Part shown: positions 23,482 to 27,192 of the stretch, piece by piece
Layout of the letters: each line of letters begins with the position of its first letter
Position numbering within the stretch: the first letter of the stretch is position 1
Assembly (NCBI GenBank): GCA_951812575.1
Contig: OX638322.1
Coordinates: forward strand, 203,442-267,441
Source of the DNA: Candidatus Binatia bacterium
GTDB taxonomy: Bacteria; Desulfobacterota; Binatia; Bin18
Length of the DNA stretch: 64,000 nucleotides
Direction: 5' to 3'
Position numbers and translations under genes: made by a program
Notes under the pieces: generated by a model
The model's input: only the letters and a program-made list of their open reading frames with translations
Database searches by the model: none
What the model was told of the DNA's origin: nothing

Positions 23482-23526
23482 TAGGTTTCTCCCACCTACC
23501 ATAAAAGACGTAGACCGTCACAGTAA
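23481..23526 (-). pseudogene. 3' remnant of the DUF2283 partner (DUF4258-like toxin)
   Basis: Reads TVTVYVFYGRWEKP* with TAATG stop/start overlap on DUF2283; upstream part replaced by a REP doublet. Confidence 0.5.
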
Positions 23527-23599
23527 GTAGGTCGGATTAGCGGAGCGTAATCCGACAAGTATGGGCTGTCGGGTTACGCCTACGGCTAACCCGACCTAC
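23527..23599. repeat. GTAG-type REP doublet (REPIN-like)
   Basis: GTAGGTCGGATTAG..CGTAATCCGAC...GTCGGGTTACGCC..GGCTAACCCGACCTAC inverted pair. Confidence 0.8.
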
Positions 23600-23618
23600 A
23601 TGGCTGCCATTCCGCTCT

Positions 23619-23694
23619 CGTCATGCCGGACTTGATCCGGCATCCAGAGGGTCAAGGGTTGGAAGCCTGGATTCCGGCTTCCGCCAGAATGACG
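23619..23694. repeat. CGTC-type REP doublet
   Basis: CGTCATGCCGGACTTGATCCGGCATCCAG...CTGGATTCCGGC...GAATGACG. Confidence 0.7.
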
Positions 23695-23724
23695 TTGCTA
23701 GCGGTAGCCCCAGAGGCAAGGATG

Positions 23725-24534
23725 CTACGCCGCCTGAGTGTCCTCAGCAAGCTCCATATACGTCTCGCGCCACTCACCGGTTTCGTCCCACCGAAAGGGC
23801 GTTTGCAGCGTCGTAAGCGGATAGCGCGCGGTCTCAAGCAGGTCGAGGGCCATGCCGACGATAGCCCGCTGCATGTCCTTGTCGTCGGGCTTGCCGCACG
23901 GATTACCGAGCGGAAAGTCGGTAAAGACAAAGCGCGGTACCCCGCACTGCTCGACAATATCGCGGGCCGAGCCGAGGACGACCGTGGGAATGCCGTGCGC
24001 TTCGAGATGCCGGGCAACCAGACTCACGGTCTGGTGACATACCGGTCACAGGGCGACCAGCAGGACAATATCGACTCCGTCCTTACGGCAGAAGTCGAGC
24101 ACGGCCGGGGCATCCTCGTGCACAGTCTGCCGCGCACTATAGACCGTGGGCACGCCGTAAAAGCGCGGCGACAGGCTGCCGAGCCGGCCTTCGGCCACGT
24201 ACTCATTCAAGCGGCGGACAGGCAGGAAGGTTTCGACATCGTCGGTATGGGTGGCCGTTTTGTGCCACGACAGGTGATGGGTGTAGAGCGCCTCGGGGGC
24301 GGGTCGGGTGGCCGCGGCATACCGGCTGCGCTTCCGCCCGCCCTGCAAATCCGGGGCCGCGGTGGTGACCAGCGCGACCCGGCTTTCACTCAGCGGCTTG
24401 GTCAGCGGCGTGAACGGCGCGTCCGGGTTGGACGCCCAGCGGTAAGGATTACCGTAGCCCTTCGCCAAGTAGAATTCACGCGATTTGTCGATATAGCTGA
24501 CAAAGCCGCGCTGGGTTGGATCGATATCACTCAT
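23725..24534 (-). CDS. Glycine/betaine/proline reductase selenoprotein B (GrdB/PrdB)-like selenoprotein, Sec at in-frame UGA 24046-24048
   Basis: ORFs 24046-24534 and 23725-24027 are in one frame, joined as DGVDIVLLVAL-UGA-PVCHQTVSLVARHLEAHGIPTV (UxxC); KPLSESRVALVTTA, DFPLGNPCGKP. Confidence 0.85.
24017..24035 (-). promoter_or_regulatory. Putative bacterial SECIS hairpin
   Basis: ACCAGAC-CGUGA-GUCUGGU perfect 7-bp stem starting 11 nt after UGA, G at loop position 2. Confidence 0.65.
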
Positions 24535-24581
24535 GCCTGACCTCCCTGCTCGTATACCGGCTTCAAGAATAGGGCCCGGAC

Positions 24582-25931
24582 CTAGGCGGCCATCAGCTCG
24601 GCCAAAGCATCGGCATCACTGACTGGATCGGGCCGGCCGTTGGCCAGCGGCCGCGAGCCGGGTTTTTTCTCAAACGGGTCAACCAGCCCCAGCGTCTTGC
24701 CGTGCTCGCGCATGACCGGAATGACGTCGCGGTTGAGCAGTTCCAGACAGCGCATCCGGTCCTTGGCCGGCACCGGGCCGTCCAGCCAGAAGGAGAAGAT
24801 GCCCGGCCGCAGGATATCCTGGATTTTCTTGAGCTTGGGAATCACGTTGTCCGGCGTACCGGCGATCATGACCATTTCCTTGAGGACGCCGGGATAGCTA
24901 TCATAAATAGTCTTTTTGACGGCCTCGATCTCTTCGACCGTCGTTTCTCCGCCCTCACCGTACAGCGGTCCGGCAGAGGCATTGACGCCGAAGTTCGTCC
25001 GGGCCAGCCGGCGGGTCGCCGCTTTCGAGTTATAGCCCGGAGGAAACATCCATTCGGGCCGGGCGAAATGCGCAAAGGCTCCACCGTACAGAATGCGCTT
25101 GCCCATTTCTTCCGCGCGTTCCTGCGTATCCGCGACCATGACCGGTTGCAGATAGCCAAAATTCTCCGGCCCGGCCTGATAGCCTTCACGGGCTGCGGCT
25201 GTATTGTAGAAATCCCACAGTTCCAGGGTCGGTTCGAGTCGGGTAGCCAGGGCCACGTAGGGGTAGCGGTTCTTGGCGCACCACGCGACCGTCTCGGGGC
25301 TGATGAGACCGGGAATCCAGAAGGGCGGATGCGGCTCCTGGACGGGCAGTACCCAGGGATTGACGTGCCGGAAGTGGAAGTGTTTGCCCTCATACCGAAA
25401 CGGGCCGGGCTTGGTCCACGACTTGACGATAAAGTCGATGCCCTCTTCAAAGTATTCGCGATTGAAAGCCGGGTTGGCATTATTGGCGAGCTGTTCGCTG
25501 CCCGCACCGCGCACCCAGCCGGAGATCAAGCGGCCATTGGAGATCAGGTCGATCATGGCCAGTTCTTCGGACAACCGAAGCGCATTCGACACGGTCGGAA
25601 CCGGGTTGCCGAGCAGCGCCATTCTGACCCGGCTGGTCGCCTTGGCCAGGATCGAGGCTTCGACATCCATGACCGCGCCCAGGCAAAAGGGGGTGGCATG
25701 GTGCTCGTTGAGCATGATGCCGTCAAAGTTCATCAGCTCCTGATCGGTATAGATTTTCTCGTCGAGATACTGGTTGAGCAACCGCGCGCCGTGCTGACGA
25801 TCGAAATAGCTGTTCGGCGTCCCGAAAAAGCTGCGTTTGCGAATAATCTCGTTTTCGAGGTCGCGGTATTGCTCCGGATGTTCTTCCGGGTCGTAGTGAT
25901 ACGCACGTTCCGTAAACCACATGAAATGCAT
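24582..25931 (-). CDS. LLM class flavin-dependent oxidoreductase
   Basis: FDGIMLNEHH, RLSEELAMIDLISNGRL, PVQEPHPP; ATG after CAGGAGG. Confidence 0.9.
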   Translation of the reverse strand: MHFMWFTERAYHYDPEEHPEQYRDLENEIIRKRSFFGTPNSYFDRQHGARLLNQYLDEKIYTDQELMNFDGIMLNEHHATPFCLGAVMDVEASILAKATSRVRMALLGNPVPTVSNALRLSEELAMIDLISNGRLISGWVRGAGSEQLANNANPAFNREYFEEGIDFIVKSWTKPGPFRYEGKHFHFRHVNPWVLPVQEPHPPFWIPGLISPETVAWCAKNRYPYVALATRLEPTLELWDFYNTAAAREGYQAGPENFGYLQPVMVADTQERAEEMGKRILYGGAFAHFARPEWMFPPGYNSKAATRRLARTNFGVNASAGPLYGEGGETTVEEIEAVKKTIYDSYPGVLKEMVMIAGTPDNVIPKLKKIQDILRPGIFSFWLDGPVPAKDRMRCLELLNRDVIPVMREHGKTLGLVDPFEKKPGSRPLANGRPDPVSDADALAELMAA

Positions 25932-26001
25932 AGTCTGTCCTCCTGCTGTGAAAAAACCAGAAATATAAGAGACGGGCGGCGGAGGCAAGAGGAAACGCAG
26001 G

Positions 26002-27192
26002 CTACCCCGTCCCCTTATGCGTCCGCACGATGAGTCCTCGATGTTGTGGATGGCGTGTCTCGACTTGGACGTCGCGGTAGACATCTCCCTTGAGGGGCGA
26101 GAGGTAGCCGATGCTGTATTGCTGGCGAAGTTCGTGGGCAATGGTCTGGGTTGCTTGTTCGAGTACAGTGTGGCTCCCCAGAATATCTTTCGTACTCAGA
26201 AAAAAATGTTGGGCGCCGGTCGTGTCACTCAGCGATTGCAGCAGGTCAACATCCACCGAGCCAAAATTGGGCCGGCCCCGACTGGGCATGAAGGGACCAC
26301 CCATCCCGCCCATCCCCCACATGGGCATCCGCTGGCTTCGTGCACCCTGGCTGAGATTACCGATACCGATGGTGTATATGAGAATATTGGTTTCCCGCGC
26401 CGCCCGAAAAGCGTCTTCGCGTGAGGCCGTGCTTGAGGTATCCAGTCCATCACTCATGAGGATGAGGGCTTTCTTCTGACGCTGGCCGCGTTGGATGCGT
26501 TGCAGACCGCCCAACACGGCGTCGTACAGGGCCGTCTCGCCGCCCGGCTGGAGACCGGCCGTAGCCTGCGTCAACAGGCTGGGGCTGTCGGTAAAGTCCT
26601 GTAAGATCGTGAGCTGGTGATTAAACCCTAGAAGAAAAACCTCGTCGCCGGGCTTAATCGCTTGAGCAAAACTCCGCAGGGCAAGGACGGCCCGGCGCCG
26701 TTTGCCGTGCATGCTTTCACTCATGTCAACCAGGAGGCCCAGACTGACCGGCTCCTGTTGGCCAGTATTAAAATAGGTAATGAGCTGAGACTGGCCCCCT
26801 TCGTAGATGATAAAATCCTCGGGAGTCAGACCGTTGATATATTGACCGTTCTGATCAGTCACGGTGACAGTGAGGAGTTGGGTGGGTCTTGAAGTCCGTT
26901 TTTGGAGATGCGGAGGCGGAATGCCCTGTTGACGTGGAAGGGTCTGCATAGACGGTTGCGAGACCGAGGGCAGTTCCAGGACTTGGGGCCGGGCGGGGGC
27001 ATAGCGCTGCGGGGAAGAGGGCCGGGGAGTTTGTTGCGGCGCTGGCCGCGTTCCCTGCCACCCGTCGAGTTGCAACCCGCGCGTCTGGTCGTCTGTGTCC
27101 TGCGCGGAAGAGAGCGAAGGAGCAAGCAGGAGATGGGAGAGGAGGAGAAGACAGAGCAATACGCCAGGATGTTTGTCTATGCTCTGCCTCAT
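26002..27192 (-). CDS. Secreted VWA domain protein (Acidobacterial VWFA-like)
   Basis: Signal peptide, Pro/Gln linker, DMSESM MIDAS, TALYDA, SDGLD, ELRQQYSIGY. Confidence 0.85.
   Translation of the reverse strand: MRQSIDKHPGVLLCLLLLSHLLLAPSLSSAQDTDDQTRGLQLDGWQGTRPAPQQTPRPSSPQRYAPARPQVLELPSVSQPSMQTLPRQQGIPPPHLQKRTSRPTQLLTVTVTDQNGQYINGLTPEDFIIYEGGQSQLITYFNTGQQEPVSLGLLVDMSESMHGKRRRAVLALRSFAQAIKPGDEVFLLGFNHQLTILQDFTDSPSLLTQATAGLQPGGETALYDAVLGGLQRIQRGQRQKKALILMSDGLDTSSTASREDAFRAARETNILIYTIGIGNLSQGARSQRMPMWGMGGMGGPFMPSRGRPNFGSVDVDLLQSLSDTTGAQHFFLSTKDILGSHTVLEQATQTIAHELRQQYSIGYLSPLKGDVYRDVQVETRHPQHRGLIVRTHKGTG

Follow-up and report, generated by a model that had tools for sequence, protein, structure and literature searches.

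A probable PrdB/GrdB-like selenoprotein gene, cut at its UGA by gene calling, with a covarying hairpin in a Candidatus Binatia genome

The stretch analysed here, hereafter the window, comprises 64,000 nucleotides of a Candidatus Binatia bacterium (GenBank assembly GCA_951812575.1, contig OX638322.1, positions 203,442 to 267,441 of the forward strand), and the gene in question is a candidate selenoprotein gene on its minus strand. There, 24534..23725 form a single frame whose sole in-frame TGA is found at 24048..24046 (codon 163), while translation table 11 yields two open reading frames (ORFs) in this same frame, one of 162 amino acids (24046..24534) and one of 100 amino acids with an internal GTG start (23725..24027). 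The minus-strand text around the TGA is CTG TGA CCG GTA TGT CAC CAG ACC, and the original prediction, made from the letters of the DNA, held that it joins the two ORFs into a hidden protein of 269 residues. Translation bears this out: with the TGA read as selenocysteine (Sec, U) the frame gives 269 residues with U163 within VAL-U-PVCHQTVSL, in the wider context ...DIVLLVAL-U-PVCHQTVSLVARHLE..., and the protein aligns from M1 with full-length homologues. The features of the gene, including the putative selenocysteine insertion sequence (SECIS), are as follows.

23725..24534, minus strand: predicted coding sequence of a PrdB-like selenoprotein, 269 residues, with ATG at 24534..24532 and TAG at 23727..23725, translated with TGA as U
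24046..24048, minus strand: predicted Sec codon UGA (codon 163), first residue of U-P-V-C, aligned with the invariant cysteine (Cys) of the Cys forms
24017..24035, minus strand: putative SECIS hairpin, with 5' arm 24035..24029 ACCAGAC, loop 24028..24024 CGUGA and 3' arm 24023..24017 GUCUGGU
24541..24547, minus strand: candidate Shine-Dalgarno-like AGGGAGG, 6 nt 5' of the ATG, from direct reading of the sequence

As to gene calling, all public predictions that we met for this clade break the gene at the UGA. In fact all the database matches of at least 86% identity, 14 among the best 120, are proteins of 162 amino acids ending with ...LLVAL, just before the TGA, which agrees with the expectation that an ORF caller would split and thereby hide the gene. 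Moreover, in a library of representatives at 50% identity, about 29 of the best 150 clusters are pieces ending C-terminally at query residue 159-162, and a further 21 have their first or second residue aligned to query residue 165 or 171. Since such fragment ends at the U column are the two halves left by an ORF caller, the mis-annotation looks systematic; these proteins fall short of the cut-offs of the curated PrdB and GrdB models, which may explain why annotation pipelines miss them. On the plus strand, an antisense ORF of 305 amino acids (23623..24540) covers the selenoprotein gene over its full length; it exceeds both sense fragments in size, and a length-based ORF caller could pick it. 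The same antisense ORF clusters in 63 loci in our clustering of neighbouring genes, and this cluster is taken as the shadow of the conserved sense frame.

The residue standing at the U163 column in relatives is informative for the reading of the UGA. A database search with the window protein gives 5761 proteins at E <= 0.001, and the representative library holds 1609 relatives at this threshold, 614 at 1e-10 and 81 at 1e-30. The full-length matches (about 291 amino acids, 51-66% identical) carry Cys at this column, with CPVCHQ invariant in 15 of 15 aligned sequences; in an alignment of 60 rows, C is found in 59, two of them being C-for-U readings made here, and W in a single database protein, most likely the product of a gene caller using a code with TGA as Trp. 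In the DNA itself, TGA stands in each of the 26 loci retrieved with the window protein as query, and these belong to Candidatus Binatia metagenome-assembled genomes (88-97% identical), Chloroflexota, Cellvibrionaceae, Pseudohongiella and Acidimicrobiales. With a Cys form of Bradyrhizobium as query, for which 80 of 428 detected loci were kept, the Bradyrhizobium-type clade has TGC/TGT, and Reyranella, Hyphomicrobiaceae, Burkholderiales and others have TGA. Altogether, the motif-bearing loci (n = 108, several phyla) have TGA in 89 cases and TGC/TGT in 19, and never a Trp codon, and a quick tree groups the 19 Cys forms in one clade (SH-aLRT 96) nested among the Sec forms. The column on which the original prediction had staked itself is thus occupied by Cys (59 of 60 rows) or by TGA (89 of 108 loci).

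The genome holding the window, a single contig of 5.18 Mb with an estimated completeness of 97.5%, possesses the whole machinery for Sec that had been named for checking. In a genome search selA (598.8 bits), selB (388.5), selD (312.4) and selC as the tRNA-Sec (70.7) each score above the curated cut-off, and ARAGORN reports a tRNA-SeC with anticodon tca about 0.9 kb from selA. SelD is here the C-terminal part of a 755-residue ORF (262-2529 in the selD locus) whose N-terminal half is Pyr_redox_2 (NADH-dehydrogenase-like), and SelD fusions of this kind have been described before. Meanwhile TGA ends 12 of the 29 non-overlapping ORFs of at least 300 amino acids in the window, so that it is not generally reassigned and serves as an ordinary stop here. 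Moreover, selA is present in all three of the Sec-form genomes tested and in neither of the two Cys-form Bradyrhizobium genomes tested. Neither of the two findings that the original prediction named as refuting it, a genome lacking Sec machinery or homologues with a non-Cys residue at the column, is borne out.

The hairpin had been described as a perfect 7-bp stem with a CGUGA loop, starting 11 nt past the UGA and carrying a G early in the apical loop, and it is found exactly so: the UGA is separated from the stem by 10 nt, so that the stem opens at the 11th, and from the loop by 17 nt, and G then U occupy loop positions 2 and 3. According to the legend of Fig. 2 in a 2026 review (PMC13188914), the bacterial SECIS consensus (bSECISearch model) calls for an apical loop 3-9 nt long, an upper stem of 4-16 bp, a G at loop position 1 or 2 with a U after it, a distance of 16-37 nt from UGA to loop, and a minimum free energy of at most -7.5 kcal/mol. 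The 5-nt loop, the 7-bp stem, the G and U in the loop and the 17-nt spacing all agree with this consensus, and the 33-nt hairpin segment folds at -11.3 kcal/mol, within the energy limit; the element differs from the consensus in being specific to its gene family, written as it is in the codons of HQTVSLV.

Because the stem is written in these codons, the Cys form of the same peptide provides a useful control. A perfect 7-bp Watson-Crick stem is seen in 86 of 89 Sec forms versus 1 of 19 Cys forms, and every one of the 89 Sec forms shows a CGUGR loop, while in the Cys forms the Ser codon is mostly AGC, not AGU, and the Val codon is variable. Among 68 distinct Sec rows, 98.7% of the cells pair and four of the seven pairs are changed on both sides (34 cells), which none of 500 shuffles reaches, and at slid registers the pairing of these rows is 14-36%; among 18 distinct Cys rows, 81% of the cells pair, none of the changes is compensatory, and 267 of 500 shuffles pair at least as well. 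The signal is clearest in the synonymous sites of the Gln and Leu codons, which in 88 orthologous Sec forms are CAG with CTG in 48 and CAA with TTG in 40, with no mixed case, while a mismatched CAA with CTG or ATG occurs in 7 of the 19 Cys forms; in the quick tree up to 9 switches between CAG/CTG and CAA/TTG are needed. It is this comparison between Sec and Cys forms, rather than the folding energy, that sets the hairpin apart from chance, and by it the 7-bp CGUGA hairpin appears to be a functional-looking, covarying SECIS. Lying in synonymous codons of a conserved peptide, it would be a clean natural example of selection on a SECIS, and it also offers a simple sequence test to separate the Sec from the Cys forms of the PrdB-like family.

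Downstream of the UGA, codons 164-269 show 345 synonymous and 100 non-synonymous differences against 19 Binatia orthologues, while codons 1-162 show 441 and 204 against the same orthologues, the counts being summed over pairwise comparisons which are not independent. The frame is kept without other stops and the TGA is conserved in 19 of 19 of these orthologues, and motifs past the UGA, for example DFPLGNPCG, are common to the Cys forms. Judged by these comparisons, the frame after the UGA is under purifying selection. In the contigs of RNA libraries from two runs of one study (X15 and X17), 23725-24534 is contained in one contig at about 95% identity; these contigs have no listed difference at the TGA or the hairpin and extend into the upstream gene. 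As for the end of the protein, the window protein and 18 of the 19 Binatia orthologues end at residue 269 (window 23725-23790), and most homologues run about 22-30 residues further with a basic tail of consensus G-x-E-R-R-x-x-Q-A (alignment columns 300-333).

The same genome has two further copies of the gene, both 37% identical to the window protein; in each, a single in-frame TGA falls at the same motif.

G000:C1:3365356-3366135, plus strand: paralogue 2, with UPVCHQSVGLIARH and hairpin AUCAGUC-CGUGG-GACUGAU
G000:C1:2694062-2694688, minus strand: paralogue 3, 386 amino acids, U152, with UPLCPRTVC and hairpin GCGUAC-CGUGU-GUACGC

The hairpins of both paralogues begin 10-11 nt past the UGA, that of paralogue 3 at 11 nt, and between the hairpins of paralogue 2 and the window three stem pairs differ, with both sides changed in each. 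Paralogue 3 passes the Pfam family GRDB (41.3 bits versus a cut-off of 22), with a match which ends just before U152. By these features the genome would encode at least three PrdB-like selenoproteins. Beyond this, paralogue 3 is extended at its C-terminus by about 150 residues, in which Pfam finds no match.

In regard to family membership, the best family of the window protein is NCBIfam TIGR04483 PrdB (E 3.4e-30, residues 37-237 against 16-222 of a 238-position profile), and U163-P-V-C166 fits the UxxC motif listed for PrdB and GrdB. With the PrdB of Clostridia it shares a similar size (that of a 26-kDa subunit) and Sec in UxxC; it differs in its score of 105 versus 300 bits, in that no PF09338 match is found in its genome by a search without a positive control, and in that no prd genes lie nearby. 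With GrdB, GrdF and GrdH (PF07355, TIGR01918) it shares the UxxC and a weaker match of residues 85-236 to the C-terminal third of profiles of about 430 residues, but it is about 160 residues shorter and no GrdA match is found in the genome, again without a positive control; moreover, where a review gives the GrdB motif as UxxCxxC, the window protein has Thr instead of the third Cys. In Pfam, the GRDB family PF07355 with its cut-off of 22 bits included, no match to the window protein is found at E <= 0.01, nor by sequence in the PDB at the same threshold. A confident AlphaFold model (pLDDT 88.5, pTM 0.89) places U163 between a strand at 156-160 and a helix at 166-179. Foldseek against the PDB returns nothing at E <= 0.001, and a wide search with VIA-align gives generic Rossmann-like matches only (LacI/periplasmic-binding and short-chain dehydrogenase/reductase (SDR) folds) with a best Z of 9.6, which is within the range that the tool calls common, so that the fold search provides no functional lead.

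The kind of protein is known. 'Proline reductase PrdB' with its UXXC is described as the third most abundant selenoprotein family of the Sargasso Sea, with 42 genes (Zhang, Fomenko and Gladyshev 2005, PMC1088965), and in the Global Ocean Sampling (GOS) data the PrdB family is given 235 Sec and 110 Cys members (Zhang and Gladyshev 2008, PMC2398784); reviews of 2022 and 2026 list D-proline reductase/TIGR04483 among the known selenoproteins. As PrdB has thus been listed as an abundant marine selenoprotein since 2005, the window gene is an unannotated addition to a known kind. The passages describing the marine family in these two papers agree with our protein in the UxxC, the likeness to PrdB, the Cys homologues, the SECIS directly past the UGA and the abundance in oxic samples, and by these descriptions the two likely belong to the same clade. 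On the other hand, the papers predate the Binatia genomes, their passages on the family do not discuss a missing PrdA partner, and the term 'PrdA' does not occur in the GOS paper. Our literature search found no paper linking Binatia with 'selenoprotein', met 'selenocysteine' together with Binatota only in a reference title, and, for PrdB-like or GrdB-like proteins or PrdB homologues, turned up only work on the fluoroacetate metabolism of Synergistota. The PrdB-like family is widespread, with its 5761 database matches and 1609 representative clusters, and has been ranked among the most abundant marine selenoproteins.

Considering the complete machinery, the pair of Cys and Sec forms, the covariation of the hairpin and the selected downstream frame together, which support the original claim of a UxxC selenoprotein with a SECIS, we hold it very probable that 24534..23725 of the window is one gene encoding a 269-residue selenoprotein of the PrdB/GrdB-like superfamily. 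UGA163 would be decoded as Sec, as the comparison of forms indicates; the 7-bp CGUGA hairpin, 17 nt downstream, would recruit SelB with Sec-tRNA(Sec), and the ribosome would read 106 further codons to the TAG. The product is modelled as a Rossmann-like alpha/beta fold in which U163-x-x-C166 sits at the N-terminal end of a helix, as a redox pair would. By homology to PrdB and GrdB, the selenol may attack a substrate carbon or a disulfide-type bond, after which Cys166 may resolve the adduct to a selenenylsulfide and a dithiol donor re-reduce it.

Several points weigh against this interpretation. The selenium in the protein is inferred from sequence comparison. The 62-nt fold around the hairpin, at -20.7 kcal/mol, has z = -0.61, with 49 of 200 shuffles folding equally well, and as it is no different from shuffles we left the folding energy out as evidence; no Rfam family matches the hairpin in a scan of 23850-24150 at E <= 10. 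Since the Cys forms pair in 81% of cells, part of the pairing stems from coding, and in the tree the well-supported branches force only one switch from CAG/CTG to CAA/TTG, which leaves the number of independent events uncertain. The RNA-library contigs may contain DNA and give no proof of one transcript, thus they are a weak hint of expression. As for the family, the TIGR04483 score is 105.3 bits, below the equivalog cut-off of 300 bits, and GrdH, TIGR01918, GrdB and GrdF score 34-45 bits, all under their cut-offs (TIGR01918 41.3 versus 65.45). The label 'GrdB/PrdB-like' of the original prediction therefore stands as a likeness (E 3.4e-30) but not as membership in a curated family (105.3 against 300 bits, no Pfam GRDB match): scoring under every curated PrdB and GrdB cut-off, the protein is a relative rather than a member, and a shared catalytic mechanism would follow from this kinship only by inference. 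Finally, neither PF09338 (PrdA/GrdE) nor PF04723 (GrdA) has a match in the genome, but both searches lacked a positive control, with no match in any of the 14 control genomes either; and no partner is conserved across lineages among the 109 loci of the neighbour clustering.

The function is best approached through the longer homologues. Of 27 such proteins (P0124-P0150), about 17 consist of AMP-binding and AMP-binding_C followed by the PrdB-like domain (about 810 amino acids), four have a C-terminal APH/fructosamine-kinase-like domain and two a CoA-transferase III, while alpha/beta-hydrolase and cupin/CDO-like domains are also met, and CPVCHQ is kept in all 27. The fusions to adenylate-forming, kinase and CoA-transferase domains suggest substrates of carboxylic-acid type; no PrdA/GrdE-type or GrdA gene is found by the searches, which had no positive control, and the substrate is probably neither D-proline nor glycine and might instead be among the carboxylic acids, this being the weakest step of the scheme. 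We tentatively propose, as a possibility still short of probable, that the PrdB-like proteins of Binatia, Reyranella, Chloroflexota and others form a separate class of Sec-dependent reductases, working without the pyruvoyl (PrdA/GrdE) and GrdA partners on activated carboxylic acids (acyl-adenylates or acyl-CoA). If this is true, three paralogues in one genome would mark an unrecognised branch of selenium-dependent organic-acid metabolism in oxic habitats.

A rather unlikely alternative, which also takes the gene as a true selenoprotein, is a general thiol/selenol-disulfide oxidoreductase whose UxxC is of thioredoxin type and not that of a substrate-cleaving reductase. The position of the UxxC at a strand-to-helix junction in the model would suit it, as would the lack of PrdA/GrdE or GrdA matches and the neighbours varying among lineages, and the marine selenoproteome papers, in their passages on the family, class PrdB with thiol-dependent redox families. 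However, the homology is to subunits of substrate-specific reductases, the fold is Rossmann-like with no thioredoxin-fold entry among the matches listed, the domains found fused in homologues (adenylate-forming, kinase, CoA-transferase, hydrolase) suggest a role in small-molecule metabolism, and conserved motifs outside the UxxC such as DFPLGNPCG suggest, from the alignment, a substrate pocket.

That the gene encodes a selenoprotein subunit of a canonical D-proline reductase, or of a glycine, betaine or sarcosine reductase, seems very improbable to us, though TIGR04483 PrdB is its best family, its UxxC is as listed for PrdB and GrdB, and homologues are called 'D-proline reductase (dithiol) PrdB' or 'glycine reductase' in JGI and NCBI entries. 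The scores are far too low for this (105.3 bits against 300, and 41.3 against 65.45 for TIGR01918), PF09338 and PF04723 have no match in the genome, a search made without a positive control, and no prd or grd gene is found among the window neighbours or in the annotated neighbour clusters. Moreover, the carriers include Reyranella and Bradyrhizobium, which are not known as amino-acid fermenters.

It is scarcely credible that the TGA is a real stop, leaving a pseudogene or two small genes with the hairpin as a by-product of coding: the public gene calls ending at the TGA (14 of the best 120 matches being 162 amino acids) and the unexceptional folding energy would fit, but the TGA is kept at its column in 89 loci of several phyla, in all 19 orthologues the frame past the UGA stays open and shows purifying selection, the Cys-form homologues are single polypeptides, the hairpin covaries in the TGA forms only, and selA accompanies the TGA forms (3 of 3 genomes) and is absent from the Cys-form genomes tested (2 of 2). 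Nor is there any real likelihood of read-through without Sec, by a near-cognate Trp or Cys with the hairpin merely slowing the ribosome, for which the one W in a database protein, itself likely a gene call under another code, might speak, since the genome has a complete Sec pathway, the G and U which the bSECIS model demands stand in the loop at the right distance, and homologues substitute Cys, the usual replacement of Sec, and never Trp in the DNA of the loci read.

Turning to the surroundings of the selenoprotein gene, the nearest upstream gene is a luciferase-like one.

24582..26141, minus strand: luciferase-like monooxygenase ORF (PF00296, 91.4 bits), whose true start may be internal

The stop codon of this ORF is 47 nt upstream of the selenoprotein start, and the two genes may share an operon. 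A related luciferase-like ORF is upstream in 15 Binatia and 2 Rhizobiaceae loci, and a luciferase-like monooxygenase flanks two of the three paralogues. PF00296 has at least 150 matches (198 candidates) in the 5.18-Mb genome, a very large expansion, and in such a genome adjacency counts little, so that the luciferase-like monooxygenase was set aside as a partner. The NuoF-like and NuoG-like genes 5' of paralogue 2 were considered as well; the NuoG-like frame ends at an ordinary stop and no link was found. The neighbours in the window are catabolic enzymes, namely two luciferase-like monooxygenases (one of the NtaA/DmoA family), SDRs and an acyl-CoA dehydrogenase, together with an S15 X-Pro dipeptidyl peptidase, a major facilitator superfamily (MFS) transporter, an EthD-domain protein, an SMP-30-type lactonase and a VWA protein, and the neighbours met across loci include MFS and TctC transporters, a FAD-binding protein and an AraC regulator. 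A promoter and terminator scan gave nothing above the shuffle expectation.

On the 3' side of the gene, the intergenic stretch 23503-23724 contains a 15-nt inverted repeat, GTAGGTCGGATTAGC at 23527-23541 and GCTAACCCGACCTAC at 23585-23599, with the look of a repetitive extragenic palindromic (REP) element. In the RNA-library contigs this stretch has a far higher summed depth (hundreds) with many loose ends, as would be expected if that community held many copies of it. Eight runs labelled sponge metagenome, three of them labelled metatranscriptome or transcriptome, contain the stretch under study in full or in part, and this fits a sponge-associated organism.

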